Virus record (IMG/VR): IMGVR_UViG_3300020058_000046
Source: a virus
Strand: one strand, 5' to 3'
Length of the DNA stretch: 45,534 nucleotides
Positions 8,440 through 45,534 of the stretch are shown here, piece by piece. The notes under the pieces are model-generated. The model saw only the letters and a program-made list of their open reading frames with translations, did not search any database and was not told the DNA's origin. Every line of letters starts with the position of its first letter. The stretch's first letter is position 1. Both the position numbers and the translations under genes were made by a program.

Positions 8440-9228
8440 TCAGTTGTCGCCCGACGGTTCAATAGTCACGTCGACCGACTGAATCCAATACCGAACGTTC
8501 TTGCGAACTATCGTCGTGTTGTGTTGTCGTTCGATTTTGTTGTCGTCGTCGCCGACTGCCGGCAGGTTCGATTGCCACATTGCGGTGTCGTACGACCCGC
8601 GACTTGTACTGTTCAGTTTCGACCGGGCACGTTCGACGATGTCGCCGGCACGACCCGGCACGACCGTCACGGTCACCGGCACGTCGATACGGGCACGGCG
8701 TTCGGTTCGGTCGGTCGACACCTGCACGTCTTCGACGTGTCGTTCGTCTTGCGGCGGTGACTGTGCGTCGTCGTAACTGTATTTGTCGACCGTGTGTTCG
8801 GTTGCGTCGTCGACGACTTCGTCGATGTCGTACGCCGTCGCATAGTTGCCTGCAAGACACCGGAACGTGACAGTCGCGTCGACCTTGTCGACCGACGCGT
8901 CAGGGTACGCAACCCATTCGGTCGTTCCGATTCGACCCGACGATTCCGACGTGTGTACGGCACCGCCGACGCCGATGTATCGGTCGGCTTCGGCGTCGGT
9001 GCCGATTACCCACCCGGACAGTCGACGGGCACGCGAATCGAACGGGTCTGACGGTCGCACCGGGTCGTTCAGTCGTTTCGTCGTCACGTCGTCGTCTGAA
9101 TAACTTGAATCGTACCCGACGACGATGAAATCGCAGTCAGGGATTACCGTACGTTTTTCGTGCCGCGTCAGTCTGTCGACCGGCACCTTAGTCAATTCGT
9201 CGCCGTCGGCGTCGGTGTGTCGCACCAT
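8440..9228 (-). CDS. MVRH-cassette gene of unknown function, 262 aa, embedded in the structural operon
   Basis: Starts ATGGTGCGACACACCGACGCCGAC at 9228, behind its own conserved promoter. The ORF-track start at 9276 just translates the promoter. Confidence 0.75.
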   Translation of the reverse strand: MVRHTDADGDELTKVPVDRLTRHEKRTVIPDCDFIVVGYDSSYSDDDVTTKRLNDPVRPSDPFDSRARRLSGWVIGTDAEADRYIGVGGAVHTSESSGRIGTTEWVAYPDASVDKVDATVTFRCLAGNYATAYDIDEVVDDATEHTVDKYSYDDAQSPPQDERHVEDVQVSTDRTERRARIDVPVTVTVVPGRAGDIVERARSKLNSTSRGSYDTAMWQSNLPAVGDDDNKIERQHNTTIVRKNVRYWIQSVDVTIEPSGDN

Positions 9229-9290
9229 TGCAGTCGACACTAATAGACGGGTGCATAAATAAGTGTCGTCTTGCACCGGCGGGTCGGCAC
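9229..9290 (-). promoter_or_regulatory. Conserved promoter cassette, sub-type I
   Basis: Minus strand reads GGTGCAAGACGACAC-TTATTTATGCAC-CCGTCTATTAGTGTCGACTGCA-ATG. Confidence 0.75.
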
Positions 9291-17780: not shown

Positions 17781-17808
17781 AGTCTAAAGATTGAATCTTC
17801 GCCCGGTC

Positions 17809-17956
17809 GACCCTGTCTGCACAGTCGGCGTCACAGTCGCCGTCAGAAACGGCACAGTCGGTCGTGTGACCGTCGCAGTCGTACGTGCCGTATGGGTCGA
17901 ATCAGGAAAAGAACCGTCGCGTGCCGTACGCCGTCGACCCTGACGACCCTGCCGCG
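17809..17956. repeat. Phased-repeat boundary element, copy 2
   Basis: Begins at the TGA of 17957..18526. Nearly identical to copies 3 and 4. Contains TTCTTTTCC (minus strand) and 4 copies of GACTG[TC]G. Confidence 0.9.
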
Positions 17957-18526
17957 TCAGTCGTCGTCGTTGTCGGCAGTACCCAACCCGTCGATGTCCG
18001 TACCGGCAAGTGCCGCGTCGACGACTTCGGTGTCGAACGCGTCGACTGCGTGTGCGACGATTGGGTCGGCGACTGTACTGTCAGGGTCGACCCTGTCGAA
18101 CAGTTGCGACAGGAATTCGACCCGACGGTCGAATTGCGGTCGTGTCTGACTGTCGTACAGGTGTTCGATTGGGATTCGTGCAAGCCGACCCGACGGGTAA
18201 TCGTACGTCTTGTCGGCAGGGTCGGCGGGTATGTCTTGCGGCTTCGTCGGCACGAACACGCATTCGAATATCGTGTCGTCGGGTCGGATTGGTAACCACG
18301 GGTGAACCTTGTACGTGGTTAGGTCGAAGTCTTCGTCGTCGAAGTATTCGACCGCCGTGTCTGCACGAACGCGACTGACGTACAACGGTCGACCTTGCAC
18401 AAGGTCGATTACGATGTCGCCCGGTTGTACCTGTCGCGGGAATTGCGACAGACTGTCAGTCAGTCGGTCGTGTGCCTTGCGTTCCGATTCGTCGAACGTG
18501 TTGTCGATTGCACCGTGTTCAGACAT
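17957..18526 (-). CDS. Acidic protein of unknown function, 189 aa
   Basis: ATG at 18526 (MSEHGAID...) overlaps the stop of 18519..19094 (ATGTCTGA). The longer ORF-track version (to 19072) runs through the upstream gene in a Ser/Thr/Arg-rich frame. Confidence 0.7.
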   Translation of the reverse strand: MSEHGAIDNTFDESERKAHDRLTDSLSQFPRQVQPGDIVIDLVQGRPLYVSRVRADTAVEYFDDEDFDLTTYKVHPWLPIRPDDTIFECVFVPTKPQDIPADPADKTYDYPSGRLARIPIEHLYDSQTRPQFDRRVEFLSQLFDRVDPDSTVADPIVAHAVDAFDTEVVDAALAGTDIDGLGTADNDDD

Positions 18527-19206: not shown

Positions 19207-19842
19207 TCAGGGTGCGAAGTCGGTGACCGTCACGATTCGCCGTCGCGGGTTTCGGTTGCGCGTGAACCGTTCGTCGTGTTTCTTGTGGTGGTCGTACCTG
19301 TCGGGCACGTATTGGTCGATGAATCGGAACGCACCTTGTTTCGTCTGAAAGACGACTTCGACCGTGCCGTTGTTCACGTCGAAGTCGGCGTACGACACCG
19401 TGTCGACGTATGCGTTGTTGTCGGCACGCATATCGTCGATACAGTCACCCGCAACGGCGTCGACCACAATGACACCACGCAGGTAATCGACGATGTCGAC
19501 GACTGCACGGTTCGACAGGCACGCGTCGACGAACGCCGGCATACCCATGATATGCACGACGATATCAAGGTCGTCGGATATGGTCGACACGACACGACCG
19601 ATTTTGATTCCGTCGGTCGTCAGACAGTCGTTGTCGGTCACCCACCCGTGTTCGACCAACCGTGCCTTGCGGTCGGTGTCGACGGTTCCGGCTTCGCCGT
19701 CGACGTACCGGGCGACTGCCCGCAAGTCCTTGCGCGTTCGGTTCGTGCCCGCGTCGTCGTCGGCAAGTGCCTGCACCGCGTCGGCAAGGCTTAACGTCTG
19801 TTCGTCGGTTCGGTCGTCGTCGGCGTCGGTGTGTCGCACCAT
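19207..19842 (-). CDS. MVRH-cassette gene of unknown function, 211 aa
   Basis: ATG at 19842. The first ~30 aa (MVRHTDADDDRTDEQT..DAVQAL.DDD) are shared with 29017..29232; the rest is unrelated. Confidence 0.75.
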   Translation of the reverse strand: MVRHTDADDDRTDEQTLSLADAVQALADDDAGTNRTRKDLRAVARYVDGEAGTVDTDRKARLVEHGWVTDNDCLTTDGIKIGRVVSTISDDLDIVVHIMGMPAFVDACLSNRAVVDIVDYLRGVIVVDAVAGDCIDDMRADNNAYVDTVSYADFDVNNGTVEVVFQTKQGAFRFIDQYVPDRYDHHKKHDERFTRNRNPRRRIVTVTDFAP

Positions 19843-19900
19843 TGCAGTCGTCACTAATAGACGGGTGTATAAATATGTGTCGTCTTGCACCGCCAGTATG
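19843..19900 (-). promoter_or_regulatory. Conserved promoter cassette, sub-type I
   Basis: Minus strand reads GGTGCAAGACGACAC-ATATTTATACAC-CCGTCTATTAGTGACGACTGCA-ATG. Confidence 0.75.
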
Positions 19901-23987: not shown

Positions 23988-24346
23988 TGCGAACCACCGT
24001 CGTCACGCGGGTCGGTCGGCAGTCGCACGTCGTCGGCGTCGATTCGCAGTCGCGTACCGCCGTTGTGTCTGTCTTCGACTGTCACCGGCGGGAAATACGC
24101 GTCGTACATACCGGCGACTGCCGCGTCGATGTCCGACGCCGACCACGATTCGGGCAATTCGACCACCGCGTCGCCGGCGATAGCAATGAATTCGTCGATG
24201 TCCTTGCCGTGTACGTTGCGGTCGAACCACCGTTGCGCGTGTGCAAGCCAATATCGGGCATGGTCACCCGCGTCGGTGTCTTCGCCGGCGGTTCCGAACC
24301 GTTCGTACCGACCTTGTCGTTCGTCGGTTGTGGTGTGTCGCACCAT
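23984..24346 (-). CDS. MVRH-cassette gene, 120 aa, ending in the DPRDDGGSQ linker
   Basis: ATG at 24346 behind the conserved promoter. The C-terminal ...DPRDDGGSQ* is identical to that of 29017..29232. Confidence 0.75.
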   Translation of the reverse strand: MVRHTTTDERQGRYERFGTAGEDTDAGDHARYWLAHAQRWFDRNVHGKDIDEFIAIAGDAVVELPESWSASDIDAAVAGMYDAYFPPVTVEDRHNGGTRLRIDADDVRLPTDPRDDGGSQ

Positions 24347-24400
24347 ACCCCTACTTGCATACCCGTGTATAAATATGTGTCGTCTTGCACCGGCAAAAGG
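24347..24400 (-). promoter_or_regulatory. Conserved promoter cassette, sub-type II
   Basis: Minus strand reads GGTGCAAGACGACAC-ATATTTATACAC-GGGTATGCAAGTAGGGGT-ATGGTGCGACACACC. The TATA is at 24368-24375. Confidence 0.8.
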
Positions 24401-25158: not shown

Positions 25159-25947
25159 TCAGTCGTCGATTCGACCGTCGTGGTCGACCGTCACGTCGAA
25201 GTCGGAATCGACCGTGCGTTCGACGCCGGCTTCGATTCGGTCTTGCACGGTGTCGACGCGGTCGTCGGTGACGCCGTCGACGGTCACCGTGAACGTGTGA
25301 CCGGCAGGGAATTCGACGCGTGCCGTCTTGCCGATTTCTTGATTCCGTCGACCCTGCGTTTCGACGGTGCGTTCGTGAACCGCCGTCACTTCGACGTGCC
25401 TGTCGCGTCGACTGTCGTACCCACGAATCCGGTCACCATTCCATTCGACCGATACGTCTTGCAGGGTCATGGTTTTCAGATTGCCCGAACGGTTCGAACG
25501 GTACTGCACCGTCACGTCGACGCCGTCTTGCACGGCACCGTCGACGGGTGCCCGCCGACCCATGACCACGCAGGTTAGGTCGACCGCGTCGGCGACTTGC
25601 CTGAATTCGTAATCGTCACCCTGCCGGTACAGATTGCCGGCGTCGGTGTACGCGTACTTCGTGCCGTCGACGTACCAACTGTAAACGCCGACGCCGTCGT
25701 CGGTGTCGACCTTGTCGGCGTCGCGGGTCGACTTCGTCGGCGTAACTGCCCGAACCGTCTTGCGCGTGTCGCGTCGGGTCGTGTACGTGAATTCGATTGC
25801 CTTGCGGTTGTGGTCACAGTCGACGACATCGTCAGACACGGTAAGACCCGTGAATCGGTCGTGAAATAGGTCGTCGGCTTCGATGTCGACCGTTCGTTCG
25901 TGGTATTCGTCGGCGATTCGGTCGTCGGTTGCGGTGTGTCGCACCAT
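25159..25947 (-). CDS. MVRH-cassette gene of unknown function, 262 aa
   Basis: ATG at 25947 (MVRHTATDDRIADEY...). The ORF-track N-terminal extension translates the promoter and the upstream repeat. Confidence 0.75.
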   Translation of the reverse strand: MVRHTATDDRIADEYHERTVDIEADDLFHDRFTGLTVSDDVVDCDHNRKAIEFTYTTRRDTRKTVRAVTPTKSTRDADKVDTDDGVGVYSWYVDGTKYAYTDAGNLYRQGDDYEFRQVADAVDLTCVVMGRRAPVDGAVQDGVDVTVQYRSNRSGNLKTMTLQDVSVEWNGDRIRGYDSRRDRHVEVTAVHERTVETQGRRNQEIGKTARVEFPAGHTFTVTVDGVTDDRVDTVQDRIEAGVERTVDSDFDVTVDHDGRIDD

Positions 25948-26002
25948 ACCCCTACTTGCATACCCGTGTATAAATACGTGTCGTCTTGCACCGGCGGGCA
26001 AG
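25948..26002 (-). promoter_or_regulatory. Conserved promoter cassette, sub-type II
   Basis: Minus strand reads GGTGCAAGACGACAC-GTATTTATACAC-GGGTATGCAAGTAGGGGT-ATG. Confidence 0.8.
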
Positions 26003-26350: not shown

Positions 26351-26799
26351 TGCGAACCACCGTCGGCGTCGTCGTCGTCGTCGTCGTCGCGTCGTTCGGG
26401 CACTTCGACGTACAGTCGAACGCAACCGGCACCGTCACGGAATCGAACCGTTCGGTCGGTCGATTCGTCGGCGTACCCGGCAAGCCTGACAAGTGACATC
26501 GGCGTCGCGTGTGGGTCGTCTTGCCCGAACGAATCGTATTCGACTTTCACTTCGTCGGCACGGTCGAAGTCTATCATAGACAACACGTCGAAGCCGACCG
26601 CGTCGGCACACAGTTTTGCGGCAAGACCGACCGGCGTTAGAACCTTCGACGATTCCGGGTCGTGGTCGTCGGCGTCGTATTCGGCTTCGACCGCGTCGAC
26701 GACCGCGTCGAACGCGTCAGACGACGGGTCGTCGGCGTACGCAGTCGCAGTCTGTTCCGGCGTCGGTTCGGCGTCGTCGGCGTCGGTGTGTCGCACCAT
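26347..26799 (-). CDS. MVRH-cassette gene, 150 aa, ending in the ...DGGSQ linker
   Basis: ATG at 26799 (MVRHTDADDAEPTPEQ...). The C-terminus is DDDDDDDADGGSQ*. Confidence 0.75.
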   Translation of the reverse strand: MVRHTDADDAEPTPEQTATAYADDPSSDAFDAVVDAVEAEYDADDHDPESSKVLTPVGLAAKLCADAVGFDVLSMIDFDRADEVKVEYDSFGQDDPHATPMSLVRLAGYADESTDRTVRFRDGAGCVRLYVEVPERRDDDDDDDADGGSQ

Positions 26800-26842
26800 A
26801 CCCGTACTTGCATACCCGTGTATAAGTATCTGTCGGTGGTTT
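26800..26842 (-). promoter_or_regulatory. Conserved promoter cassette, sub-type II, with the upstream half replaced by the long repeat
   Basis: Minus strand reads CCGACAGAT-ACTTATACAC-GGGTATGCAAGTACGGGT-ATG. Confidence 0.7.
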
Positions 26843-27089
26843 ACTATCAGGTACAGTACCGATACAGTCATATACGCAGTTTCGATTCTAAGCCGTCTTA
26901 GCGGTCGCACAGTCGGCTTCAATTTTCGCCGACCCATACCACCTATTCTTTTTTCAAACGGATTCGGCAAGTTCGGACCCTGTACTTACTGATATCGGGC
27001 GTTTCGGCAAAATACACGGGTATTTAAAGGCACCCGCCGATATCACCCTGTATCATAATACCGAAACAAAACGCGTCGGTTCCGGTGTC
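26843..27089. repeat. Long intergenic repeat, copy B (paralog of 5152..5400)
   Basis: See copy A. Contains GCGTTTTGTTT, CCTTTAAATACCC, and a conserved stem GTCGG-N12-CCGAC whose loop differs between the copies. Confidence 0.85.
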
Positions 27090-27237
27090 GACCCTGTCTG
27101 CACAGTCGGCGTCACAGTCGCCGTCAGAAACGGCACAGTCGGTCGTGTGACCGTCGCAGTCGTACGTGCCCGATTGGTCGCAGTCACAGACGAACCGTCG
27201 CGTGCCGTACACCGTCGACCCTGACGACCCTGCCGCG
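27090..27237. repeat. Phased-repeat boundary element, copy 3
   Basis: Begins at the TGA of 27238..28041. Minus strand has GACTGCGAC-N15-GACTGCGAC-N12-GACTGTGCC-N12-GACTGTGAC-N3-GACTGTGCA. Confidence 0.9.
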
Positions 27238-28041
27238 TCAGTCGCCGTCGTCTTCGTCGCCGTCTTCGTCGGTCGGTGGTTCGGTCACCTGTACGTGCGT
27301 GATATCGACTTCGGTGACACCGTCGTCGTCGACCGTCACGTCGTGGTCACCGTCGACATTCACGTCGACACCGTCTGATATCTTCTTGTACGTGTCTATC
27401 AGGTTCGCAAGGTGGCTTTCCTTGCGTTCGATTGCCTTGTCACCGAACGATACGAACCGTTCACCCGTCGGTTCGAAGTCGCCCGAACGTACGTCGCACG
27501 GCGTCGGGTTACCGTCAGACATATCGAAGCCGGTGCAGACTTCGGGCAACGGTGACGATTCCGACGCCGTGTACGTGTTGCCACACTTCGGGCAACTGTA
27601 CTTGTCGACCCGTTCGGCTTCGGGTATCTTGTCGACTGCCCGAACCAACCGGGTGAATTCCCACCCGATTGATTGCTTTAGCATATCTGCCATGTCGTCG
27701 ACCGACAGTAAGTCGCCGTCGTCTGTCTGCACGACCGCGTCGAAGACTTCGGCGTCGTCGTCGTTCATTCGTTCGGAATACAACAGGTGTCGGGCGTTTT
27801 GGTTTTGCCACCCTTCTAAGCCACCGACGCCGTGCCCGTTGTGTTTCCTGCAATGCCCGGTCGTACGGTCGGTGCCCCAACCTGCGGCTTGCAGACAAAA
27901 CGCGTAATCCCACCGTTTGTTTCCGTTCACGTCTGTCGCGTCTGTCTTTTCACGACCGCATATCGGATATCCGTTTTCCGGGTGTATCGGTACGCCGTCG
28001 TCGTTCGTCGGTGCGTCAGGGTGTACGTTCGACCATGCCAT
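27238..28041 (-). CDS. HGGxSTG-like Zn-binding protein; possible small terminase subunit, 267 aa
   Basis: ATG at 28041. The N-terminus CGREK..x..CLQAAGWGTDRTTGHCRKHNGHGVGG..WQNQNARHLLYS resembles the C..C..GRC..HGG...G..GN.NA.KHG.YS block seen in some phage TerS-annotated proteins. Middle CPKCG. Acidic tail. Confidence 0.35.
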   Translation of the reverse strand: MAWSNVHPDAPTNDDGVPIHPENGYPICGREKTDATDVNGNKRWDYAFCLQAAGWGTDRTTGHCRKHNGHGVGGLEGWQNQNARHLLYSERMNDDDAEVFDAVVQTDDGDLLSVDDMADMLKQSIGWEFTRLVRAVDKIPEAERVDKYSCPKCGNTYTASESSPLPEVCTGFDMSDGNPTPCDVRSGDFEPTGERFVSFGDKAIERKESHLANLIDTYKKISDGVDVNVDGDHDVTVDDDGVTEVDITHVQVTEPPTDEDGDEDDGD

Positions 28042-29020: not shown

Positions 29021-29232
29021 TGCGAACCACCGTCGTCACGCGGGTCGTCGAAGCCGTCGACGTACGTGACTGCAAGGTCGATAATCTGGTTCGGGTCGTC
29101 GATTGAACCGACTTCGTCGACGATGAATTCGGGCACGTCGTCGTCGCCGGTTAGTGCCTGCATTGCGTCGAACGCGTGTGCTTTCGTCTGTTCGTCGGTT
29201 CCGTCGTCGTCGGCGTCGGTGTGTCGCACCAT
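29017..29232 (-). CDS. MVRH-cassette gene, 71 aa, ending in DPRDDGGSQ
   Basis: ATG at 29232 behind the conserved promoter. Confidence 0.75.
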   Translation of the reverse strand: MVRHTDADDDGTDEQTKAHAFDAMQALTGDDDVPEFIVDEVGSIDDPNQIIDLAVTYVDGFDDPRDDGGSQ

Positions 29233-29285
29233 ACCCGTACTTGCATACCCGTGTATAAAAATGTGTCGTCTTGTACCGGCAGGTG
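29233..29285 (-). promoter_or_regulatory. Conserved promoter cassette, sub-type II
   Basis: Minus strand reads GGTACAAGACGACAC-ATTTTTATACAC-GGGTATGCAAGTACGGGT-ATG. Confidence 0.8.
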
Positions 29286-30033: not shown

Positions 30034-33000
30034 TCAGTCGTCAGGGTCGACCGCGTCTTCAACCGTCACGGCTTCGATTCGCGTAATCGTGCGTGGTTCG
30101 TCGAAGTCGGCACCGTGCAGTTGCGGTCGGTATGCGTTCACCTGTCTGTCGTCGGTGTCGCCGGTGGTTCCGACGCGTGTTTCTGTCCATTCGACCGATA
30201 CCATGCAGTCGTCACGAAGCCATCGGAACGACGCCGTGTGTGCCGTCTTCGTTCCGTACTTGTGGTCGGTCGTCGACCGTGCGTGTCGTCTGAATTCGGC
30301 GGTGACCGTGCCTGCGACGGTTCGCAGGTGGTACGCGTCGCCGGATTCGACTGTGACCGTCGTGTCTTCGTTCACGGGTATGTCGACCGATACGTACGGC
30401 GTCGCGGCAGGGTCGACCACGGTGTCGAAGTCGCCGTCGTCGCCGTCGTCGCCGGCACCCTGCCCGCCGTCGGTTCGAACCGCGTGCAGGGTTGCGTCGA
30501 ACGATATGACTGCAAGCCACCCGTCGGTGTCGACGACGGACAGTCGACCGCCGGCATTCCATACTAACTGCTTGCCGTCGGCGTCGGCAAGTTTCACGAT
30601 GTTAGATAGTTCCGTGCCGTCGACCGTCTTGATGTCCGTGTCGGTCACCGTTCCGGCGATTCGACCTTTGCCGTCGTCGCCGGCAATCGGTTCGGCTTGC
30701 ACGACCACGTTGTCACCGCGTTCAAGGTCGTGTGCGTCGACTTCGGTGTCGTCGTCGGTATCCTGCCCGCCGTCGGTTCGAATCCTGCCGTCGCCGGCGT
30801 CACAGTCGTCGTCAGACGCGTCAGACGTGCCGTCAGGGTCGTCGTCGGTGTCGTCGGTGGTTTCGTCACCGTCGTCGACGCGGTCGACGTGCCGTGCAGA
30901 CACGACGATAGACGTGCCGTCGTACGCGACGTGCCCGTCACCGTCGCGGGTCGTGGTCGCAGTCAGTTGTGACCCGTCGACTTCGTCGACCGTTGCCTGC
31001 CCGCCGTCGACGAAGGTGCCCGAATGTTCGTCGGGCACGAACACGGTGTCGCCGGCGGTGATATCGTGGTCGTAATTGTACTTCGGGTCGTCGAAGTCGA
31101 CGCCGGCGTCGGTTAGTTCGTCGACGACCGCGTCTGACGACCGGATTTCAGGCACCGCGAAGTCGCGGTCGTCACCGGCTTCGAACGCGACGAATTCGAT
31201 ATCGCCGATGTACGTGTGATTCCCTGCCGACGACACCGAATGTATCTGTCCGGTCGTAAACTTGTCATTGCCGAACCGGAACGACCCGTCGTGGTCGTCG
31301 GTTTCGAAGACGATTCGGTGCAATTCGCCGTGTGCGTGATTGTACGTCACGTTCGTCACCGTGCCCGACTTCGTCAGGGTCGACGACGAACGGTTCGAAT
31401 CGTACGCGACGAACACCCTGTCGCCGATTGCGATATCGCCGGCGTCGAAGGGCACTTCTTGATACGTACCCAATGACTGCAAGCCGGAACCTGACGTGCC
31501 GGCGGTGACGTGACTGTCGTACGATTCGGCGGTTTCGTACGCGACTGCACCGGGTCGGTCGTCGTTGTAGACTTCGCCCGACGATTCCTGCACGTACCAC
31601 CTGTCGTCGTCGGTTGCGGTGAACCGAACGACACCGTCGGACACCTTCGTCACCGTGCCCGCGACGACGGTGTCGTCGTGATTGCAGTCTTTGCCCGTGA
31701 CGACGATACTGTCGCCGGCTTCGAACCTGCCGTCGAATGCGTCACAGTCGTCGTCAGACGCGTCAGACGCGTCGTCAGGGTCGTCGTCGGCGTCGTGCCC
31801 GCCGTCGGTCACCGGGTCGGCACGTTCGACAGTCAGGTGCCGGTCGTCTGATTCCTGCACGGCGTCGACACCGTCGAAGTGTCGTAACATTGCGTCGCCC
31901 GCGTCGACCGCCGTGTCGTCGCCGGTGAATGACATCGACAATTCGTGTAACTGAACGCCGACGACGCGTTCGTCGGCAGGGTCGACCGCGAAGTGTCCGT
32001 ACCGGGCACCACCTTTCACCGTTCGCAAGTCGACCGCGTCAGTCAGGGTCGACAATGCCGACTGCACTTCGTCGACGACGCCGTACTGTTCGGCGACGAT
32101 TTTGTCAGGTTCGAACCACCCGGCAAGACCCGTTCCGAAGTCGAACGTGGTTCGGTCACCGGAACGGTCGGCGACGAATCTGATTTTGTGCCGGTCGGCG
32201 TCATTCATCGGTTTGTCGACTGCGACTTCGAACGGGTCGGCGTCTTCGTCGCGGGCAGACAAGACACGACGGCACGTTTCCGTCGCCGTGTCTGCCACCG
32301 GAACGAAGACACCGGATTCGACGGATTCGACGAAGTCGTCGATAGTGTCTGCCGAACCGTTGTCGTACCGAACGACCGTGTCGAACGACGCGTCGTCGAC
32401 GGTTTCGACGGTGTAAACCTTGTCGTTGTGAACGCCGACGAACGTGTCGCCCGGCGACGGCATATCGGCGTTGTCGGCGTCGTCGGTGCCGTCGTCGACG
32501 ATGTCGATGTCGTCGACACGACCCAACTGCGTATTGTGTTTGCGTGACGGACCCGTCGACTTGTGCAGAAACACGGGCACGGTGTCGCCGTCGGCACGAA
32601 CGTACCGCGTCGAACCGTCGTAATCGGCGTCGGGTGCCGTCGCGTTCGTTTGCAGTCGGATTCGGGCAGGGGCACCGTCGTCGTCGGTCGTCGTCACGGC
32701 TTCGGTGACCCACACGTCGACCGTCGTGGTTTCGTCGTATTCGTCTTTGTAGTGACGCGACTTGTGTGCGTACGTCACTTCGATTCGGTCACCGGCTTCA
32801 AGACCCTGCACGATGTCGAACGCGTCGGCAAACGGCAGGTGGTCGGTCGTCGATTCGTCGGCGTCGTCGGCGGGCACAAGTTCGATTACGTCGGCGTCTT
32901 TCAGTCTGTACGACAGCGTGCCGTGTGGTTCCGGGTCGACCCATGTGGTGCGACCCGACGCCGAATCGTCTGTCGTCACGCGGTACACGTCTGTCGTGCC

Positions 33001-33195
33001 CGGTATCGGGTCGTGTCGCCGTCTGAACTTGTCTAACGTGTCGGCGTCTGTGTGCCACCGTTTGCCTTGCCGCAAGACGATTAGCGATTCGTCTTCGGGC
33101 AGGTTCGGCAGGATTGCCGCGACGGTTAGGGCAGTACGATACGACAGGGGCACACCGACGCGTAAGTTGTTCCAATCTGTCGGTTTCCGTGTCAT
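30034..33195 (-). CDS. Giant acidic protein with repeated small beta-barrel-like modules, 1053 aa, unknown function
   Basis: ATG at 33195 (ATGA overlap). At least 7 copies of [FL][ED]AGD.[IV].V...G.V..V. Three (R/V)TDGG(Q/H) Asp-rich linkers, two of which follow the SDASDDDCDA segment. No P-loop seen. Confidence 0.8.
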   Translation of the reverse strand: MTRKPTDWNNLRVGVPLSYRTALTVAAILPNLPEDESLIVLRQGKRWHTDADTLDKFRRRHDPIPGTTDVYRVTTDDSASGRTTWVDPEPHGTLSYRLKDADVIELVPADDADESTTDHLPFADAFDIVQGLEAGDRIEVTYAHKSRHYKDEYDETTTVDVWVTEAVTTTDDDGAPARIRLQTNATAPDADYDGSTRYVRADGDTVPVFLHKSTGPSRKHNTQLGRVDDIDIVDDGTDDADNADMPSPGDTFVGVHNDKVYTVETVDDASFDTVVRYDNGSADTIDDFVESVESGVFVPVADTATETCRRVLSARDEDADPFEVAVDKPMNDADRHKIRFVADRSGDRTTFDFGTGLAGWFEPDKIVAEQYGVVDEVQSALSTLTDAVDLRTVKGGARYGHFAVDPADERVVGVQLHELSMSFTGDDTAVDAGDAMLRHFDGVDAVQESDDRHLTVERADPVTDGGHDADDDPDDASDASDDDCDAFDGRFEAGDSIVVTGKDCNHDDTVVAGTVTKVSDGVVRFTATDDDRWYVQESSGEVYNDDRPGAVAYETAESYDSHVTAGTSGSGLQSLGTYQEVPFDAGDIAIGDRVFVAYDSNRSSSTLTKSGTVTNVTYNHAHGELHRIVFETDDHDGSFRFGNDKFTTGQIHSVSSAGNHTYIGDIEFVAFEAGDDRDFAVPEIRSSDAVVDELTDAGVDFDDPKYNYDHDITAGDTVFVPDEHSGTFVDGGQATVDEVDGSQLTATTTRDGDGHVAYDGTSIVVSARHVDRVDDGDETTDDTDDDPDGTSDASDDDCDAGDGRIRTDGGQDTDDDTEVDAHDLERGDNVVVQAEPIAGDDGKGRIAGTVTDTDIKTVDGTELSNIVKLADADGKQLVWNAGGRLSVVDTDGWLAVISFDATLHAVRTDGGQGAGDDGDDGDFDTVVDPAATPYVSVDIPVNEDTTVTVESGDAYHLRTVAGTVTAEFRRHARSTTDHKYGTKTAHTASFRWLRDDCMVSVEWTETRVGTTGDTDDRQVNAYRPQLHGADFDEPRTITRIEAVTVEDAVDPDD

Positions 33196-33497: not shown

Positions 33498-33922
33498 TGT
33501 GTCACCCGTTGCATTACTGCAAGGATTGCGAACGCGTACAGGAAAGCAAACGCACCGCCGACGATTAAGCCGACGTGAACACCGCCGAACGACGCCGACA
33601 CCGCCGTCGTGCCGTACGCGACGGACAAGGCACCCACCGCAAGGGTGCCGTATAATCCTGCCGTGACGGTCGTTCGTGCCGGTGGCACGGCGTCGACAAT
33701 GCCGGTCGTTGTCGTCGATAGTGTCTTCGACATTGCCGTCAGTACGTCGTCGCCGTCGTCGTGCGTGTCAGTTTCGTCGACCGCGTCGCCGGCGTCGTCG
33801 TGCGTCGGTGCGTCAGGGTCGGCTTCGCCGGCGTTCGGTTGCACTTTCCGATTCACCGTTCGGTCGTCGTGGTCGTCGCCGTCACCGTCACCGTCGACAG
33901 TACCGCCGTCGGCGTCGGTCAT
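33494..33922 (-). CDS. Membrane protein with an acidic N-terminal region and two C-terminal TM helices, 142 aa
   Basis: ATG at 33922 overlaps the PCNA stop (ATGA). The ORF-track start at 33988 lies inside the PCNA gene. Confidence 0.65.
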   Translation of the reverse strand: MTDADGGTVDGDGDGDDHDDRTVNRKVQPNAGEADPDAPTHDDAGDAVDETDTHDDGDDVLTAMSKTLSTTTTGIVDAVPPARTTVTAGLYGTLAVGALSVAYGTTAVSASFGGVHVGLIVGGAFAFLYAFAILAVMQRVTQ

Positions 33923-34716
33923 GCTGATTTTGGTAATCGTGGTGCCTGCATTATCTTCGTGTCTATCGTGTCGTGTCGCGTTGTCCATACGTGGTATGGC
34001 ATATTGTCGCCGGTTACCATACGGAACGTGTCGGCGTCGATTATCGACACGAAGTCTTGCAGGTACGATAGTGACTGTTTTACCGTGACGCGTGTGTCCG
34101 GTGTGCCGTCGTCGTTGTACGCGAAGTCGTCGGCGTCGTGAATGTCGACCGATACTGAATCGGTGTCGCCGTCACCCGTCACCGTGAACGCCGAATCGTC
34201 GTCGAACGTGAATGTGCAATAGTTGGTCACCATGTCAGTCACGTCGACGGCACGGTCGAACTTGTCTGTCGGTACTGTGCAGTCGACGACGTACCCGTCT
34301 TTGTCTGCCGGCGGTACGTCGAACGGTGACCCGGTGACGGAATCGACGGTAAGACCCGCCATTCGGAATTCGATTTCTCCGGCTTCGATTACGAATTCGT
34401 AATTGTCCCAATCGTACCACAAGTGTACGGGTGCGTCGACCTTGCCGATTACGTCGCCGAACCGTTCGATATTCACACCCAACCGGAACGTGCCGGATAC
34501 GTCGTAATGGTCGAAGTCGTCGGCGTCGACCGTCTGTCGGACCATTGCGACGTTTGCCGCGTCGACACTTCTGTTTTCGAAACCGTCAGGTGTGAATTCG
34601 AAGACGGTTTCGAAGCGATTGATTGCCTGCAATCCGTTTGCGATACTGTCCCATACGTCGCAGTCGATTATCGTGTCGACGGTTACTTCGCCGTCGGAAC
34701 CTGTTTCGGGTGGCAT
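33919..34716 (-). CDS. pcn: PCNA sliding clamp, 265 aa
   Basis: ATG at 34716 (MPPETGSDGEVTVDTIID...). Length and two-domain pattern fit PCNA, and the C-terminal ...KIMQAPRL matches the PCNA-type ..APRI ending. The upstream part of the ORF-track ORF covers the tRNA. Confidence 0.75.
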   Translation of the reverse strand: MPPETGSDGEVTVDTIIDCDVWDSIANGLQAINRFETVFEFTPDGFENRSVDAANVAMVRQTVDADDFDHYDVSGTFRLGVNIERFGDVIGKVDAPVHLWYDWDNYEFVIEAGEIEFRMAGLTVDSVTGSPFDVPPADKDGYVVDCTVPTDKFDRAVDVTDMVTNYCTFTFDDDSAFTVTGDGDTDSVSVDIHDADDFAYNDDGTPDTRVTVKQSLSYLQDFVSIIDADTFRMVTGDNMPYHVWTTRHDTIDTKIMQAPRLPKSA

Positions 34717-34774
34717 GGTTGTTCGGTGGGTCCGAATTGCGGGTCGGATACCCGCCGACCGCGTGGTCGGAAAG

Positions 34775-34857
34775 TGGCACCTGCCGGATTCGAACCGGCG
34801 AAGTCCTGCGACGCACGGTCTTAAGCCGTGTGCAGTCGACCACTTTGCTAAGGTGCC
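34775..34857 (-). tRNA. tRNA-Leu (anticodon UAA), class II, 83 nt, no encoded CCA
   Basis: Acceptor GGCACCT/AGGTGCC. D stem GCA/TGC with GG in the loop. Anticodon stem CACGG/CCGTG with loop CTTAAGA. 14-nt variable arm. T arm GCCGG-TTCGAAT-CCGGC. Discriminator A. Confidence 0.85.
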
Positions 34858-34883
34858 CCAAACGAACCGGCGTGCGCCGGTGG

Positions 34884-35171
34884 TTAATGCGTGTCGGCGT
34901 CGTCTGTCGGCATATTCGGCACAGTCGCGTCGACCGACAGGGTTTCGTTCAGGATTCGTTTCACGCAGTCGTCGCACACCGTTGCTTTCGTGTTCGACGG
35001 TGCCGGCGAATTTTGGTTTTGTACGTATTCGCCGACAAAGTGCCCGATGTCGACTTCGTGCCCGTTGTCGTCGGCAGTCAGGAATCGGTCACACCCTGCA
35101 CCGTCGCACACGTCACCGCGTTCGATATCCGATTCGTCGATTACCGTACCGTCGGGTAATTTCAATGCCAT
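34884..35171 (-). CDS. Small Cys-containing protein, 95 aa
   Basis: ATG at 35171, 4 nt after the upstream stop. Contains CDGAGC...CDDC. Confidence 0.65.
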   Translation of the reverse strand: MALKLPDGTVIDESDIERGDVCDGAGCDRFLTADDNGHEVDIGHFVGEYVQNQNSPAPSNTKATVCDDCVKRILNETLSVDATVPNMPTDDADTH

Positions 35172-36392: not shown

Positions 36393-36465
36393 GATTGGGT
36401 GAATGGTGGGCCGGACATTGCCACCGGCAGGTGTGACCCGCGTGTGTCGGTCGGTGTCTGTCGAT

Positions 36466-36607
36466 GTCTGCACAGTCGGCGTCACAGTCGTCGTCAGAAA
36501 CGGCACAGTCGGTCGTGACGCCGTCGCAGTCGTACGTGCCGTATGGGTCGAATCAGGAAAAGAAACGTCGCGTACCGTACGCCGTCAGTCGTGACGACCC
36601 TGCCGCG
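36466..36607. repeat. Phased-repeat boundary element, copy 4
   Basis: Begins at the TGA of 36608..38305. Near-identical to copy 2. Confidence 0.9.
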
Positions 36608-38305
36608 TCAGTCGTCGGTGTACTTGTCGTGCAGGGTCGTGAATGACCCGTTTCGGGAATCACGGCACCCACACGGGCACCGCAAGGTTAGTTCGCGGTC
36701 GGTCGTCGTGTTGTATCGACTGATTTTGTAGGTGTGAACGCGAAGGGTCGGTCGAAGTCGGTCACCACACCACGGGCACACCGCAAGTTCGTGCAAGACT
36801 TCGGTGCCCTTGTCGGTGATATCCCACCGGGCATTAGGGTCGTCGAAGTCGGCGTCGTCATTGCCGTCGACGCGTTCAATCAAGCCGACTTCGCGTGCCT
36901 TGCGAATGACCGTTCGAAAGTGTGCGTCGCCGTGTGCGAAGCCGTCGGGTCGACGGAAACCCGTGCCCGGTGACCCATGACCCTGCACCTTGCGAACACC
37001 TTGCTTACCCGTCGGGCACGGTGCGATATCGTCAGGGTCGACATCGTCGTCGTACGTGTTCACGGTGAACATACCGCCGTCGCCCGACGCGTCTTCGCGT
37101 GCCGACGCAATGAATTCCTGCCACCACGCGACATCGGTAAGCAACGACCGAACCTTCGTCGGCGTCACCGACGCGTATTCGTCGAACACGTCGGCGACAT
37201 CGTCGGGCACGTCGGCGTCGTCGACGGACCACACGCGGTCGTCTTTGCAGTCGATACACACCGGGTCGTCGTGTGCCGGGTGGTCGTGTTCGGCACCGGC
37301 GTCGTGCGTGTCACCGCAACGGGCACAGTCGAACGTGTCGATGTACCTGTCGGCGGTCTTTTTGCCGTCGTCGTTGTACTGTGCCTTGTTGTAAGCCGCG
37401 TCGCGGATTCGTTCGACGTTTCGGTTCACGGACAGTCGGCGAAACGTCTGTGCGACTTCGGTTCGGTTGTTGTCCGACGCGTCGACAAGGTCGGAATACG
37501 AAGCCGCGTCGAATTCGTCGTCGAAGTCGTGTGGTATCGTCGCACGATACCACAAGGGTCGTTCGTAATCAGGGTCGTCGTATGACGGCAAGCCGTCGTC
37601 GACATCGTCGCCCGCCGTGCCTGCACGCAATGCGATAGTTGCGTCGAAGGGGCAGTCGCCGTCGTCGCCGTCGCAGGTGTATCGCAGTCGAATGATTCCG
37701 TCGTCGTCGACACGGGTGCGTTCGCGGTTCCGGTGACCGTCGTGAACCGGGCACGTCGGCGGTGCGTGTGACAACGATTCACCGTCGGCGTCGTCGGAAT
37801 ACTGTTCGACGACCTTGTGAACGACGGTGCCGTCTTCGACGACCGTTCGAATCGACCCGTCGTGCCGAATCTTGATGTCGTACTGTTCCGGTTCGGCGTC
37901 GCGCAAGAAGTGTTCCGTGTCGGCGTCGGAGTGTGCGTCGACTTTGGCTTCGACCGGGTCGGTGTCACCGCCGTCGGTCACCGCGTCGGCGACTGCCGTT
38001 TCGAACGCGTCGACGGTGTCGCCGAATCCGCGTTCGGCGTCGGTCGGTTCGCGGTCGTCGGCGTTCAGGTGGTCGTCGGCGTCGGCGGTGTCGTCGCGGT
38101 CGACGCCGTACGGATTGCGCGACTTTAGTTCGGCGATTGCGACTTCGGCGTTCGCGGTAAGGACAGGTTCGGCGTATTCGCCGTCGGGCAGGTTCGCGGC
38201 AGTCTGTGCGACGCGGTCGATGTACTGAATCAGTTGGTCGGTCGACATCGTCGTCGGGTCGATGTCGGCGGGCGATTCGTCGTCGGCGTCGGTGTGTCGC
38301 ACCAT
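36608..38305 (-). CDS. MVRH-cassette gene: large Zn-finger / winged-helix-like protein, 565 aa, candidate replication or regulatory factor
   Basis: ATG at 38305 (an in-frame ATG also sits 6 nt upstream). Cys clusters CARCG..CIDC and CPWCG..CPCGC. FRTVIRKAREVGLIERV resembles a wHTH recognition helix. Confidence 0.75.
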   Translation of the reverse strand: MVRHTDADDESPADIDPTTMSTDQLIQYIDRVAQTAANLPDGEYAEPVLTANAEVAIAELKSRNPYGVDRDDTADADDHLNADDREPTDAERGFGDTVDAFETAVADAVTDGGDTDPVEAKVDAHSDADTEHFLRDAEPEQYDIKIRHDGSIRTVVEDGTVVHKVVEQYSDDADGESLSHAPPTCPVHDGHRNRERTRVDDDGIIRLRYTCDGDDGDCPFDATIALRAGTAGDDVDDGLPSYDDPDYERPLWYRATIPHDFDDEFDAASYSDLVDASDNNRTEVAQTFRRLSVNRNVERIRDAAYNKAQYNDDGKKTADRYIDTFDCARCGDTHDAGAEHDHPAHDDPVCIDCKDDRVWSVDDADVPDDVADVFDEYASVTPTKVRSLLTDVAWWQEFIASAREDASGDGGMFTVNTYDDDVDPDDIAPCPTGKQGVRKVQGHGSPGTGFRRPDGFAHGDAHFRTVIRKAREVGLIERVDGNDDADFDDPNARWDITDKGTEVLHELAVCPWCGDRLRPTLRVHTYKISRYNTTTDRELTLRCPCGCRDSRNGSFTTLHDKYTDD

Positions 38306-38355
38306 ACCCATACTTGCGTACCCGTGTATAAAAATGTGTCGGCTTGTACCGGGCA
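38306..38355 (-). promoter_or_regulatory. Conserved promoter cassette, sub-type II
   Basis: Minus strand reads GGTACAAGCCGACAC-ATTTTTATACAC-GGGTACGCAAGTATGGGT-ATG. Confidence 0.8.
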
Positions 38356-38365
38356 GTCGGTGAAT

Positions 38366-38405
38366 GCCGACACGTTTTTACCTGCCGTCGGCGTACCCTG
38401 CACCG
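38366..38405 (+). promoter_or_regulatory. Divergent promoter of the plus-strand TFB-like operon
   Basis: Plus strand has GCCGACACG-TTTTTAC (38375-38380), then 26 nt, then ATG(38406). Confidence 0.6.
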
Positions 38406-39407
38406 ATGTCAGGTGCAAAAACCGACCCGCCGACCCTTCGCCGTCTTGCCGATTCCGTCGGCTTCGACGACGGTGATATCGACTTCGCCGAACAGTTAGA
38501 CGACCAACTGCCGAACGACGGTGGTTTCGCCGACCGTGACGCCGGTATCGTGTACGCCGTCGCGCGTATCAATAACGTGCCGATTCGACCCGGCGAAGTC
38601 GCCGACGCGTCGCAGTACGACGATGTCGACGCCGATACTGTCGTGAACGACACGCGACGTATCGCCGACACTATGCCCTTCGACTTACACGTCGACGACC
38701 CGTCGGCGTTCGTAAAACGATTCGTCGACGACGTATCCGATGTCTGCCGGGTGCCCGACGGTTTCCGGCAGACTGCCCTTCGTCTGTGTGCCGACGCAAC
38801 GAACGCCGGCTTGCAGTCAGGTAAGTCGCGTTCCGGTTTTGCCGCGTCGGTCGTGTACGCGGCTTCGGTCGTCACCGACGCCGATATCGGGCAATACGAA
38901 GTCGCCGACATCGTCGACGTGTCACCCGTAACAATCCGAAACCAGTACCGACCGATTATCGACTGCACCGACGAACACGATTGGACAATGCACGACGCCG
39001 ACGACTTGCCCGAACTTGTCGACGCAATCGCCGACGACATCGACCGCGTACCTGACGACGTGCGTGACGACGCGGTCGGCGTCGCCGAATCAGTCGTCGC
39101 CGACGAACCGGAATTCGTCACGTCGACGAAGGTGACCGGAACCGCCGGCGGTGTCTTCTATGTCGTTGCTGAACGACACCGTTTCGACGTTTCCATGCAA
39201 GAAGTCGCCGATACCGCCGGCGTCAGTAAGCATACAGTCGTTGCCCGTGTTCACGACGTGCGTGATTACTGCCGTCGCGTTCAGTACCGAACGATGAATT
39301 ACAACCGTCTGAAAGAACTTGCCGCGTCGCACGACCTTGATGTCGGCACGACGCCGGCGAAGTCAGACATCGTCGACGCGTTAGTTCGCAACAAAATCGA
39401 CGCATAA
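38406..39407 (+). CDS. TFB/TFIIB-like protein (two cyclin repeats, no Zn-ribbon or B-reader) with an extra HTH and a C-terminal HeH/SAP-like motif, 333 aa
   Basis: LQSGKSRSGFAASVVYAASVVTDADIGQYEVADIVDVSPVTIRNQYRPI matches the TFB second-repeat signature (sGrsP..lAAAalY.As......tQ.evA....VtevTIRNrY.e). The first repeat has RDAGIVYAVARINNVPIRPGEVA. There are no Cys pairs at the N-terminus. An ATG at 38364 is an alternative start. Confidence 0.7.
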   Translation: MSGAKTDPPTLRRLADSVGFDDGDIDFAEQLDDQLPNDGGFADRDAGIVYAVARINNVPIRPGEVADASQYDDVDADTVVNDTRRIADTMPFDLHVDDPSAFVKRFVDDVSDVCRVPDGFRQTALRLCADATNAGLQSGKSRSGFAASVVYAASVVTDADIGQYEVADIVDVSPVTIRNQYRPIIDCTDEHDWTMHDADDLPELVDAIADDIDRVPDDVRDDAVGVAESVVADEPEFVTSTKVTGTAGGVFYVVAERHRFDVSMQEVADTAGVSKHTVVARVHDVRDYCRRVQYRTMNYNRLKELAASHDLDVGTTPAKSDIVDALVRNKIDA

Positions 39408-39409
39408 CC

Positions 39410-39595
39410 ATGCCTGAATACCTGAAATTCCGTGAACCGTGCGACGCCGACGACTGTGACCACACAGTCACGACATGGTTTCCGAAAAACGTGTCGCCGG
39501 TGCGTGTTCGGTGTGCCGAATGTCGACGTATAAACCGTATCGAATCGTCGCCGGTCGAATCGGCAGTCGTCGCAAACAAGGGTACGGGCACATGA
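39410..39595 (+). CDS. Zinc-ribbon protein, 61 aa
   Basis: Contains CDADDCDH...x21...CAECR. ATG lies 2 nt after the upstream TAA. Confidence 0.6.
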   Translation: MPEYLKFREPCDADDCDHTVTTWFPKNVSPVRVRCAECRRINRIESSPVESAVVANKGTGT

Positions 39596-40203
39596 CGGTC
39601 GACGAATCCTGCCCGGTGTGTGACGATACCGGGTGCGTCGTCTGTTGGTCGGTCGACGATGTCACTATCGGCACGACTGACGACTGCACGTACGACAATA
39701 TCGCCGGCTTCGATGTCGACGTGACTGACGAACGGGTGCGAAGTCGTGACGGCTTCGATATCGGCGACTGCGAAGTGTCGTTCAATGCTGAATTGACCGT
39801 GCCGCAATCCGTCGTTCGAAAGACGAACCGGCGGGCAGTCGATACCCTGCAATCGAAAGCAACCCACGAATTCGACTGTGACGGATTCGACCGGGAAACC
39901 TTCGACGACGCCGTGCATTCGATTGAATCGGCAGGGTACGATACTGCACGGTGGGTTATGCCGTCGTCGGTCGTCGAATCCCTGCGTTCGTGGTACGACG
40001 ATAGGTTCCGTGTCAGTCAGTTCGACGGTGCGTTCGTCGACGACCGTGTGTCATGGCAGTACCCAATCGTCGAAGTATCTGACGATGTCGAAGATACCGA
40101 CGCGTTGCTTGTTGCCACCGACGCCGTGTCGAATGGCCCGTCGCCGTTCACCGACCGAATTATCGTCGTCGACCCTGACGGTGTCGCGGTGATTCACACA
40201 TGA
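39592..40203 (+). CDS. Protein with an N-terminal CxxCxxxGCxxC knuckle, 203 aa, unknown function
   Basis: ATG at 39592 in an ATGA overlap (MTVDESCPVCDDTGCVVCW...). The ORF-track start at 39475 overlaps the upstream gene. Confidence 0.65.
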   Translation: MTVDESCPVCDDTGCVVCWSVDDVTIGTTDDCTYDNIAGFDVDVTDERVRSRDGFDIGDCEVSFNAELTVPQSVVRKTNRRAVDTLQSKATHEFDCDGFDRETFDDAVHSIESAGYDTARWVMPSSVVESLRSWYDDRFRVSQFDGAFVDDRVSWQYPIVEVSDDVEDTDALLVATDAVSNGPSPFTDRIIVVDPDGVAVIHT

Positions 40204-40625
40204 CCGGGTCGATATTGGGGCACTTCGAAGACTGGTTCAAAAGCCGCGACACGCGGATTCGACACCGATACGAAGACGATGTCGGGCAATGGGCATTCGT
40301 CGTTCAGGTGCGTGGTGACGAACTTGTCTGTGCCGCAAGGTCGTCGTACCGTGACGACGACGCGTCGCAGGTGTCGATTATGAAACGCGTCGCAGGTAGG
40401 GCACAAGTCCGTGACGGCTTCGTCTGTCTTCGCGTTCGTGACGATATCCTTGTCTTCGACCCGGTCGCAATCCTTGCGGCAGGGTCGAATGACGAAGTCT
40501 TCGAAGACGACCGCAAGAAACGCGGTGAACAATGGGTCGTCGTGCCTGTCGATGTCGCCGTTCCGTTCGACAGGTGGTTCGACGGTGTCGACCCTGCCAC
40601 CTTCGGCGATATTACTGATTACTGA
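40200..40625 (+). CDS. Protein of unknown function, 141 aa
   Basis: ATGA overlap at 40200. Its 3' end overlaps the convergent gene 40612..41373 by 14 nt. Confidence 0.65.
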   Translation: MTGSILGHFEDWFKSRDTRIRHRYEDDVGQWAFVVQVRGDELVCAARSSYRDDDASQVSIMKRVAGRAQVRDGFVCLRVRDDILVFDPVAILAAGSNDEVFEDDRKKRGEQWVVVPVDVAVPFDRWFDGVDPATFGDITDY

Positions 40626-44607: not shown

Positions 44608-45531
44608 TTATTGCACCGTGACTTGTGCCTGCGTGACGAAACCACGGTCGTCGACTGTGATTGCGTGACTGTTGGCAAGCCACACAAGCCGGTTCGAATC
44701 GTCGTGAACACCCACCTGTACGATGTCGTACGGTGACCCGCCGGATACCGCCGAATCCGGCACAGACGCCGTCACGACGACAGACGTGCCGTCATGTGCC
44801 ACCGTCACCGACTGCCGCAAGACTTCATTCGGCAGTTGGTCGTAATCCTGTATCGTATCCTGCGTGTCGGAATACACGAATGCACGGAACGGGTCGGCAG
44901 GATTGGTCGACACGACCGCGTCGGCAATCTGTTCGAACGCGTACGGTGCCACCCATTGCGACGTACCACGGGCACGACCCGATATCGTGACTTCGGTTTC
45001 GAATTTTACGTCGTCGTTCGACGGGTCGACGCCGGTTGCGTCGAAGACTTCGCGTGTAAGCAAGGCACCGCCGTCGTCGATAATGCCGACTTCGTACCCG
45101 TTGTCGATGTACGACGGTGCCGCAATCGGGTCGGATTCGACGCGTACGTTCTTACCCGTCGCCGATACCGTCGCCGACACGTCGCCGGTCTTGTTGCTTA
45201 GTGTCGTGTCTGTCACGTCGGCGTCGTCGCCGGTGCCGTCACCGTATGCAATCTTGTCGGGCACCGACCCGTCGCCCGCCGTCGAAGCCGCGACAAGTTC
45301 ACGACCGCGTCGCGTCGATACCACCGACGACCGTGTCTGCCCGACTTCGGTGAACGGGTCGGTCGTGCCCGACGGTCGTGTGAATAGTGTCGTGTCGACA
45401 TCTAACTGCACGTACTGCCGACCATAGAACCGGGCACGTTCTTGTTGTGACGATACTGCGACGAACCGACCTTGCGTTCTATCTAAGTCCTTTCGCGTTT
45501 CGCCGACGATTGATTCAAGACTTCGGACCAT
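44608..45531 (-). CDS. Tail-tip / baseplate protein, 307 aa
   Basis: The ATG at 45531 lies in the terminal overlap. On the circle it follows 100..1560 with a 3-nt gap. Confidence 0.6.
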   Translation of the reverse strand: MVRSLESIVGETRKDLDRTQGRFVAVSSQQERARFYGRQYVQLDVDTTLFTRPSGTTDPFTEVGQTRSSVVSTRRGRELVAASTAGDGSVPDKIAYGDGTGDDADVTDTTLSNKTGDVSATVSATGKNVRVESDPIAAPSYIDNGYEVGIIDDGGALLTREVFDATGVDPSNDDVKFETEVTISGRARGTSQWVAPYAFEQIADAVVSTNPADPFRAFVYSDTQDTIQDYDQLPNEVLRQSVTVAHDGTSVVVTASVPDSAVSGGSPYDIVQVGVHDDSNRLVWLANSHAITVDDRGFVTQAQVTVQ

Positions 45532-45534
45532 TGC
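45436..45534. repeat. Second copy of the terminal 99-bp overlap
   Basis: Identical to 1-99. Confidence 0.95.

Follow-up and report, generated by a model that had tools for sequence, protein, structure and literature searches.

The window analysed here, that is, the whole 45,534-nt stretch of the IMG/VR virus record IMGVR_UViG_3300020058_000046, encodes on its plus strand a 333-residue protein related to the transcription factors TFB and TFIIB (ATG 38406 to 39407, with the stop codon at 39405-39407), within a real open reading frame (ORF) that is listed from 38364 to 39407. We have found that this TFB-like protein is composed of the two cyclin repeats of the TFB core, a third cyclin repeat and a short two-helix tail, and that it is devoid of the Zn-ribbon, B-reader and B-linker. 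The ribbon and the reader and linker are missing and a third repeat has been added; in its architecture, the protein is a new variant within the TFB family and not a member of the functional TFB class. Most likely, it blocks or redirects promoters rather than firing them.

The TFB core was recognised by sequence profiles as well as by structural comparison. The Pfam TFIIB repeat (PF00382) matched the protein with E=2.2e-15 (56.9 bits, cut-off 23.6); among the structures of the PDB, the single protein matched the P. woesei TFB core (TFBc; 1ais_B) at E=5e-16 with phmmer, and a profile of 11 family members matched the same chain at E=4.9e-30. Repeat 1 spans aa 8-92 (38427-38681, +), with AlphaFold2 (AF2) helices at 10-17, 22-34, 44-55, 62-68 and 76-89, and repeat 2 spans aa 97-188 (38694-38969, +), the stretch that gives the best Pfam match and aligns with 1ais_B; the two repeats are homologous to each other with a probability of 97% and E=8e-11 (hhalign, alignment slices). 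The AF2 model of the 333-residue protein, computed on the family alignment (pLDDT 84.6), contains three consecutive five-helix bundles (aa 10-89, 100-186 and 198-295) followed by two short helices. When the full model was compared with the PDB using Foldseek, the best matches were the TBP- and DNA-bound structures 1ais_B and 1d3u_B together with TFIIB (185 aligned columns, TMt 0.63-0.67), and apo TFIIBc (5wh1) fitted the model badly, with a root-mean-square deviation (rmsd) of 13 Å. As modelled, repeats 1 and 2 keep their canonical relative geometry. A preliminary description of this region, made from the letters alone, had seen both cyclin-repeat signatures and proposed a core-only TFB encoded by a virus; the profile and Foldseek comparisons by which it suggested verifying the TFIIB cyclin domain came out in its favour, as did the absence of the N-terminal module.

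In TFB, RNA polymerase (RNAP) is recruited by the Zn-ribbon, which engages the dock domain, and loading of the template strand is the task of the B-linker and B-reader (PMC7289017). Family-profile positions 1-201 align to residues 1-184 of human TFIIBc (1tfb_A), profile position 1 being the first core residue of that structure, and only about nine residues precede helix 1, which leaves no B-reader or B-linker. By this alignment, the protein begins exactly at the start of the TFIIB core domain. The NCBIfam TFB model NF001658 gave 73.9 bits against a cut-off of 384 and was covered only at positions 171-303 of 312. There is no CxxC pair in the protein, whose four Cys residues (114, 128, 187 and 289) are scattered, and TF_Zn_Ribbon was not found in it by Pfam; the late start and the missing N-terminal CxxC...CxxC had both been remarked on at the outset. 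The Zn-ribbon, B-reader and B-linker are likewise absent from its 10 closest homologues and from those tail-less relatives that were inspected.

Two ways in which a ribbon might still be supplied were considered and rejected. The first is a start at the upstream ATG 38364. We prefer ATG 38406 because ATG 38364 lies 5' of the gene's own TFB recognition element (BRE) and TATA box and because all homologues begin like the 333-residue form, at the position equivalent to 38406. The longer form would add 14 residues without Cys, and these are the sole in-frame extension that was obtained when we looked for an upstream start or exon bringing in a Zn-ribbon, a discovery that, according to the preliminary description, would have refuted it. 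The second is a split TFB whose ribbon would come from the 61-aa Cys4 ORF directly 3' of the gene (39410-39595, +). This ORF gave only a sub-threshold, generic Zn-ribbon match and is not conserved in related viruses: in the related genome L001, the two genes 3' of the TFB-like gene encode 136 and 91 aa and contain no CxxC, and the downstream genes of L002-L005 are of other sizes. No TFB-type Zn-ribbon was found adjoining the TFB-like gene.

Repeat 3 (aa 196-296; 38991-39293, +), identified by hhalign, AF2 and Foldseek, has its own helix-turn-helix (HTH), GVSKHTVVARVHDVR, followed by a basic patch that contrasts with the otherwise very acidic protein. Repeats 2 and 3 match each other with a probability of 98.5% and E=2.5e-15 (hhalign, alignment slices), and a separate AF2 model of aa 192-333 reached a pLDDT of 90 and a pTM of 0.81. 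With this C-terminal fragment, Foldseek ranked the cyclin repeats of TFB, TFIIB and Brf best (e.g. 1d3u_B, 89 columns, rmsd 1.5 Å), and Pfam DUF6398 matched repeat 3 at E=7e-6, just under the cut-off. Repeat 3 has genuinely arisen as a duplicate of repeat 2, and the protein is a three-repeat TFB paralogue, not a truncated TFB to which an HTH has been appended. Of the approximately 150 extra C-terminal residues with an HTH-like stretch that had been described, the HTH is confirmed, but these residues make up an entire third cyclin repeat, with a short tail behind it, and not just an HTH.

The tail (aa 297-333, YNRLKELA...DVG..P....IVDAL; 39294-39404, +) is modelled by AF2 as two short helices (299-308 and 319-328), and Y299, N300, L302, K303, A306, V313, G314, P317 and L326 are invariant in the close family; the shorter homologues P0015, P0016 and P0019 are without it. 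The C-terminal region of phrog_3281, which is annotated as endonuclease VII, matches the tail at E=9e-5. The SAP/HeH-like character attributed to this end is plausible but unproven: the two helices agree with it, but the Pfam matches to SAP (E=0.02) and Ish1 (E=0.0012) are weak and both under the cut-offs.

The alignments support the view that the features contacting TBP and the BRE are retained. R54 of repeat 1 (38565-38567), invariant in the close family, aligns with R169 of human TFIIB ('YaaaRirdiP' versus 'YIACRQEGVP'), a TBP contact at which, in the work of Tansey and Herr 1997 as cited in PMC6004067, the substitution R169E abolishes association with TBP-TATA. The recognition helix of repeat 2, V175-T-I-R178-N-Q-Y-R182 (38928-38951), aligns with V283-T-I-R286 of human TFIIB, and the viral VSPVTIRNQYR closely follows VADVTIRQSYR of human TFIIB and VTEVTVRNRYK of P. 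woesei TFB. In the human protein, V283 and R286 are the BRE base contacts (1C9B); V172, R178, Y181 and R182 of the viral helix are invariant in the close family.

The family to which the protein belongs is confined to contigs of tailed haloarchaeal viruses. Its close members form 11 clusters (38-45% identity), all metagenomic. An exhaustive profile search of 1.8 billion representative proteins returned 21 proteins below 1e-30, and the fringe beyond them consists of acidic three-repeat proteins of 290-310 aa without the tail, which are ribbon-less where inspected. No family member was found in a scan of 185,579 species genomes, which yielded ordinary TFBs only (24-30% identity), and among isolated viruses neither the locus nor the protein had a match by megablast or tblastn. 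A provirus or cellular origin was rejected, since the species-genome scan gave only ordinary TFBs and all cluster members are metagenomic. The longer contigs (20-52 kb; L001-L003, L008 and L010) all look like tailed viruses, an assignment based on L001-L003 being IMG/VR viral genomes and, for the other contigs, on Hjc or tail-fibre-type domains. On every longer contig retrieved, the TFB-like gene opens a short operon that borders the replication/early block, and it is often faced by a large Cys-rich protein.

The window itself is a complete genome of approximately 45.4 kb, circular or terminally redundant, as it carries an exact 99-bp direct terminal repeat (1-99 and 45436-45534). The tailed haloarchaeal virus to which it belongs encodes a tail tube protein, an HK97-type capsid protein, a prohead protease and a portal, as well as a large terminase and an Hjc resolvase; its capsid and terminase share 37-46% identity with their counterparts in HHTV-2, HCTV-2 and BJ1, and its proteins are acidic. 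No TBP and no full or second TFB was found among the larger ORFs scanned in this complete genome. Viral transcription must therefore still use host factors.

The TFB-like gene has a promoter of its own, in which the hexamer CGACAC occupies the BRE position (38368-38373) and is followed by the TATA box TTTTTACC (38375-38382, +). About 26 nt separate the TATA box from ATG 38406, and the mRNA is thus leaderless, this being the usual spacing for leaderless haloarchaeal mRNA. The homologous genes in L001, L002, L003, L005 and L008 show the same upstream layout. Back to back with this promoter lies a cassette promoter on the minus strand, with the BRE CGACAC at 38341-38336 and the TATA box TTTTTATA at 38334-38327, which serves a leaderless gene starting at ATG 38305 and is a member of the 78-nt repeat family D20. 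The two BREs are separated by 26 bp and the two start codons by 100 bp, in line with the distance of about 100 bp given for this divergent pair in the preliminary description. Upstream of the BRE of the TFB-like gene, an alignment of promoter instances revealed an element, GTCGGTGAATGC (38356-38367, +), that resembles GCCGGTGCAAGA of the cassette promoters and may be a contact site for repeat 3.

Promoters of this type recur throughout the window. With at most one mismatch, CGACACNTTTTTA is found at 12 sites versus 0.33 expected, and 11 of the 12 are at gene 5' ends. Seven sites, the number counted at first sight, fall in cassettes, in which the promoter and the first codons are repeated before different minus-strand genes. 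Five of these 78-nt cassettes are located at 24317-24394, 25918-25995, 26770-26847, 29203-29280 and 38276-38353, and diverged copies lie near 9210-9280 and 19820-19890, the functional strand being the minus strand in each case. A cassette consists, in this order, of the upstream sequence CCGGTGCAAGA, CGACAC, the TATA box and ATG GTG CGA CAC ACC GAC GCC GAC GAC, so that CGACAC is present twice per cassette and the N-terminus MVRHTDADD is common to seven otherwise different proteins. Beyond the window, the combination of CGACAY with a TATA box occurs 27 times in 150 kb of viruses carrying the TFB-like gene, versus not once in 92 kb of BJ1 and HHTV-2 and three times in 92 kb of cellular haloarchaeal DNA. 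Other sequences take the BRE position in the more distant three-repeat viruses. A host BRE consensus of CGAAA has been proposed (PMC4983044).

How might such a protein act? The explanation that we favour, tentatively and as one falling just short of an even chance, is that it is a TBP- and BRE-binding decoy that cannot recruit RNAP and competes with the host TFBs, repeat 3 and the tail giving upstream DNA contacts or selectivity. We arrive at it because the core geometry and the residues R54, V175 and R178 are kept, the ribbon, reader and linker are gone, repeat 2 has been duplicated, the family is restricted to viruses, CGACAY promoters accompany the gene, and the virus has no TBP or TFB of its own. 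In this scenario, the protein would be made early from its leaderless promoter, and its repeats 1 and 2 would settle on the TBP-TATA complex and recognise the BRE in the manner of host TFB. We propose that dead-end promoter complexes would result because the TBP- and BRE-contact features are intact but the modules that recruit and position RNAP are missing; in competition with the host TFBs, the viral protein would then silence those promoters to which it is bound. Its action could be directed at host promoters, resulting in shut-off, or at a class of viral promoters, resulting in a temporal switch or autoregulation, and the choice among promoters would come from the DNA contacts that repeat 3 and the tail may add upstream of the BRE. 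A more specific version, which we put forward with less assurance but still as a real possibility, is that the protein is the first natural 'anti-TFB', capturing TBP-promoter complexes with a core only and using repeat 3 to read the element upstream of the BRE, so that it would serve as a promoter-selective switch.

Several observations weigh against the decoy explanation. The residue equivalent to human K188, the second TBP-side contact, is acidic or variable in the viral family, and in repeat 1 the loop that joins helices 2 and 3 is not of constant length, because of which the affinity for TBP could be changed or lost. We also considered whether an altered BRE specificity could be read from the recognition helix, and rejected this: the helix is near-identical to that of cellular TFBs and nothing can be deduced from it. 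Conservation upstream of the BRE is weak (positions -9 and -5 to -1; 27 sites in the window and five related viral contigs), and the pTM of 0.51 of the full-length AF2 model makes the placement of repeat 3 uncertain. Moreover, a global decoy would also strike the virus's own promoters with their uniform BRE, unless it is selective.

The opposite effect, in which the protein is a positive, virus-specific initiation factor or activator that binds TBP and the CGACAY BRE, perhaps with the upstream element, and raises the use of viral promoters, is unlikely, although it accounts for several observations. Throughout the virus clade, the gene is accompanied by the unusual CGACAY-TATA promoter type; viral TFBs of full length are known, which are presumed to govern viral transcription, and some function has to be found for the additional conserved repeat and the tail. 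RNAP could be reached through a non-canonical contact of repeat 3 or the tail, or the protein could work in trans with host TFB, as TFB paralogues without canonical parts can do (Sulfolobus TFB3; PMC7289017). However, the protein lacks the sole modules of TFB that are established to recruit RNAP and to load DNA, repeat 3 and the tail resemble no RNAP-binding element, and one and the same TBP/BRE surface would be contested by the viral protein and host TFB. It should be noted that the gene's own promoter carries the CGACAC BRE and is needed for the first transcript, so that host TFB must be able to use it; this argues against the view that CGACAC promoters depend strictly on the viral factor.

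Less probable again is a DNA-binding regulator that does without TBP, its three cyclin/HTH repeats acting as an array on a viral operator, such as the 100-bp divergent region, and switching between the plus operon and the minus-strand cassettes. Such a role would suit a protein with three HTH-bearing repeats and a SAP-like tail whose gene lies at a divergent promoter pair, as is typical of phage switch regions; below the thresholds, the protein also matches numerous HTH families as well as a PHROG 'transcriptional repressor', and the K188-equivalent residues on the TBP side are not conserved. The invariance of the R169 equivalent and a repeat 1-2 geometry equal to that of TBP-bound TFBc speak against it, and beyond the promoter elements no obvious palindromic or repeated operator was noticed between the genes, no dedicated operator search having been run. 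A non-transcriptional use of the TFIIB fold, as in eukaryotic Orc6, with a role at a replication origin or in DNA architecture together with the neighbouring replication module, is very improbable: the gene does border a block with a PCNA-like protein and large uncharacterised proteins, SAP-like tails are typical of chromosome-associated proteins, and human Orc6 (6kvg) is among the structural matches of the C-terminal fragment, but that match is weak (E=0.67), the sequence similarity is specific to TFB/TFIIB with the TBP- and BRE-contact residues kept, and no origin-like repeats adjoin the gene.

With respect to the neighbouring genes, the divergent cassette promoter drives the gene of an acidic protein of 565 aa that is rich in Cys and begins with the cassette N-terminus MVRHTDADD (36608-38305, -). 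L001 has a homologue in the same divergent position, and, as judged by size, similar genes are present there in L003 (524 aa) and L002 (460 aa). Neither this protein nor a 1053-aa protein (30034-33195, -), both of which lie in the presumed replication block, has a match in Pfam, PHROGs or the PDB. In the minus-strand block, a 352-aa protein (33919-34977, -) has a weak match to PCNA_N (E=0.0012), and the corresponding block of a related virus contains a PCNA-like gene (L008, 6722-7495). On the plus strand, the 61-aa ORF is followed in the operon by ORFs of 203 aa (39592-40203) and 141 aa (40200-40625), the last two junctions being ATGA overlaps; no Pfam family was found for any of the three. 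The 141-aa protein is kept downstream of the TFB-like gene in L001, as judged by sequence, and a gene for 133-138 aa is found at that place in L002, L003, L005 and L008. In addition, the window contains a 170-nt direct repeat in three copies (17806-17975, 27087-27256 and 36457-36626; 88-91% identity), each of which starts right behind the stop codon that ends a minus-strand gene. A T-run, TTCTTTTCC, lies within this repeat, as does a possible hairpin, GGCAC...GTGCC with TTTCT after it; the repeat could represent a small RNA or a terminator that has been conserved.

Compared with known systems, the protein resembles the archaeal TFB and TFIIB cores (P. woesei TFBc, 1AIS/1D3U; human TFIIBc, 1VOL/1C9B) in the order and geometry of two cyclin repeats, in the R169 equivalent and in the V-T-I-R helix. 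It differs from TFB and TFIIB in having no Zn-ribbon, B-reader or B-linker, in the addition of a third repeat and a SAP-like tail, and in being encoded by viruses only. A third C-terminal cyclin repeat on a TFB core is also present in P0063, P0120, P0059, P0097 and P0131. P0063 and P0120 (431-433 aa) are metagenomic TFBs with a Zn-ribbon, which unlike the window protein retain the entire N-terminal module and are non-acidic; P0059, P0097 and P0131 belong to further groups that are acidic and ribbon-less, but have a different N-terminal extension and no SAP-like tail. P0054 and P0109 are grouped with these proteins. With regard to isolates, a 94-aa protein of Haloarcula hispanica tailed virus 2 (BFVD R4TG19), the closest isolate by capsid, was matched over one cyclin-like repeat (88 columns, rmsd 3.0 Å, TMt 0.66), and on the strength of this structural match it may be a one-repeat TFB-like fragment.

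Sulfolobus TFB3 keeps the N-terminal Zn-ribbon and is without the DNA- and TBP-binding core. The window protein is its mirror image, with the core kept and the N-terminus gone, and TFB3 is, in contrast, cellular and an activator. The likeness between the two is that TFB3 belongs to the non-canonical TFB paralogues; it is unable to stand in for TFB and modulates transcription in a different manner (PMC7289017). The protein RIP of ATV (ORF145) also interferes with archaeal initiation and is viral, and it partly mimics the B-linker of TFB (PMC9501531); however, RIP has an unrelated fold and binds RNAP in the DNA channel, whereas the window protein would act on the side of the promoter and TBP.

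TFB homologues of viruses are already on record but functionally uncharacterised; they have been reported from the Italian rudiviruses (PMC9501531), from Asgard viruses and mobile genetic elements, including WyrdV1 (bioRxiv 10.1101/2021.07.29.453957), and from the halite metagenomic virus Ha38 (bioRxiv 10.1101/029934). Like the window protein, full-length viral TFBs are TFB homologues of archaeal viruses without an RNAP of their own. The homologues on record, among them those of YNP1/YNP2 (Sulfolobales), the rudiviruses ARV3 and SSRV1 and the Halorubrum tailed virus DL1, align over nearly the whole cellular TFB, and the translated ORF43 of DL1 contains a Zn-ribbon, CEECGG...CDDCG, and two repeats. 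The window protein, in contrast, covers only positions 151-282 of 293 in phrog_20431 and has no tblastn match in isolate genomes. In DL1, an isolated haloarchaeal tailed virus, the TFB gene (L099, OP630574.1, 1447-2379) lies just downstream of a viral PCNA gene. No description of a Zn-ribbon-less or three-repeat viral TFB, or of a three-cyclin-repeat architecture, was found in the searchable literature. The preliminary statement, by which no truncated viral TFB of this type is known to have been characterised, has to be supplemented by the full-length, uncharacterised viral TFBs.

Archaeal viruses carry no RNAP, and how they take over host transcription is little understood. The factors studied so far are repressors that bind RNAP, such as RIP, and small ribbon-helix-helix or HTH regulators, and the known viral TFBs are uncharacterised. 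The family described here constitutes a natural experiment on blocking or re-targeting the TBP-TFB-DNA platform, and it is a possible tool for promoter-specific repression in haloarchaea. If the anti-TFB proposal is true, the protein would be a promoter-selective switch, for host shut-off or for the transition from early to late expression, that acts on the archaeal pre-initiation platform itself.

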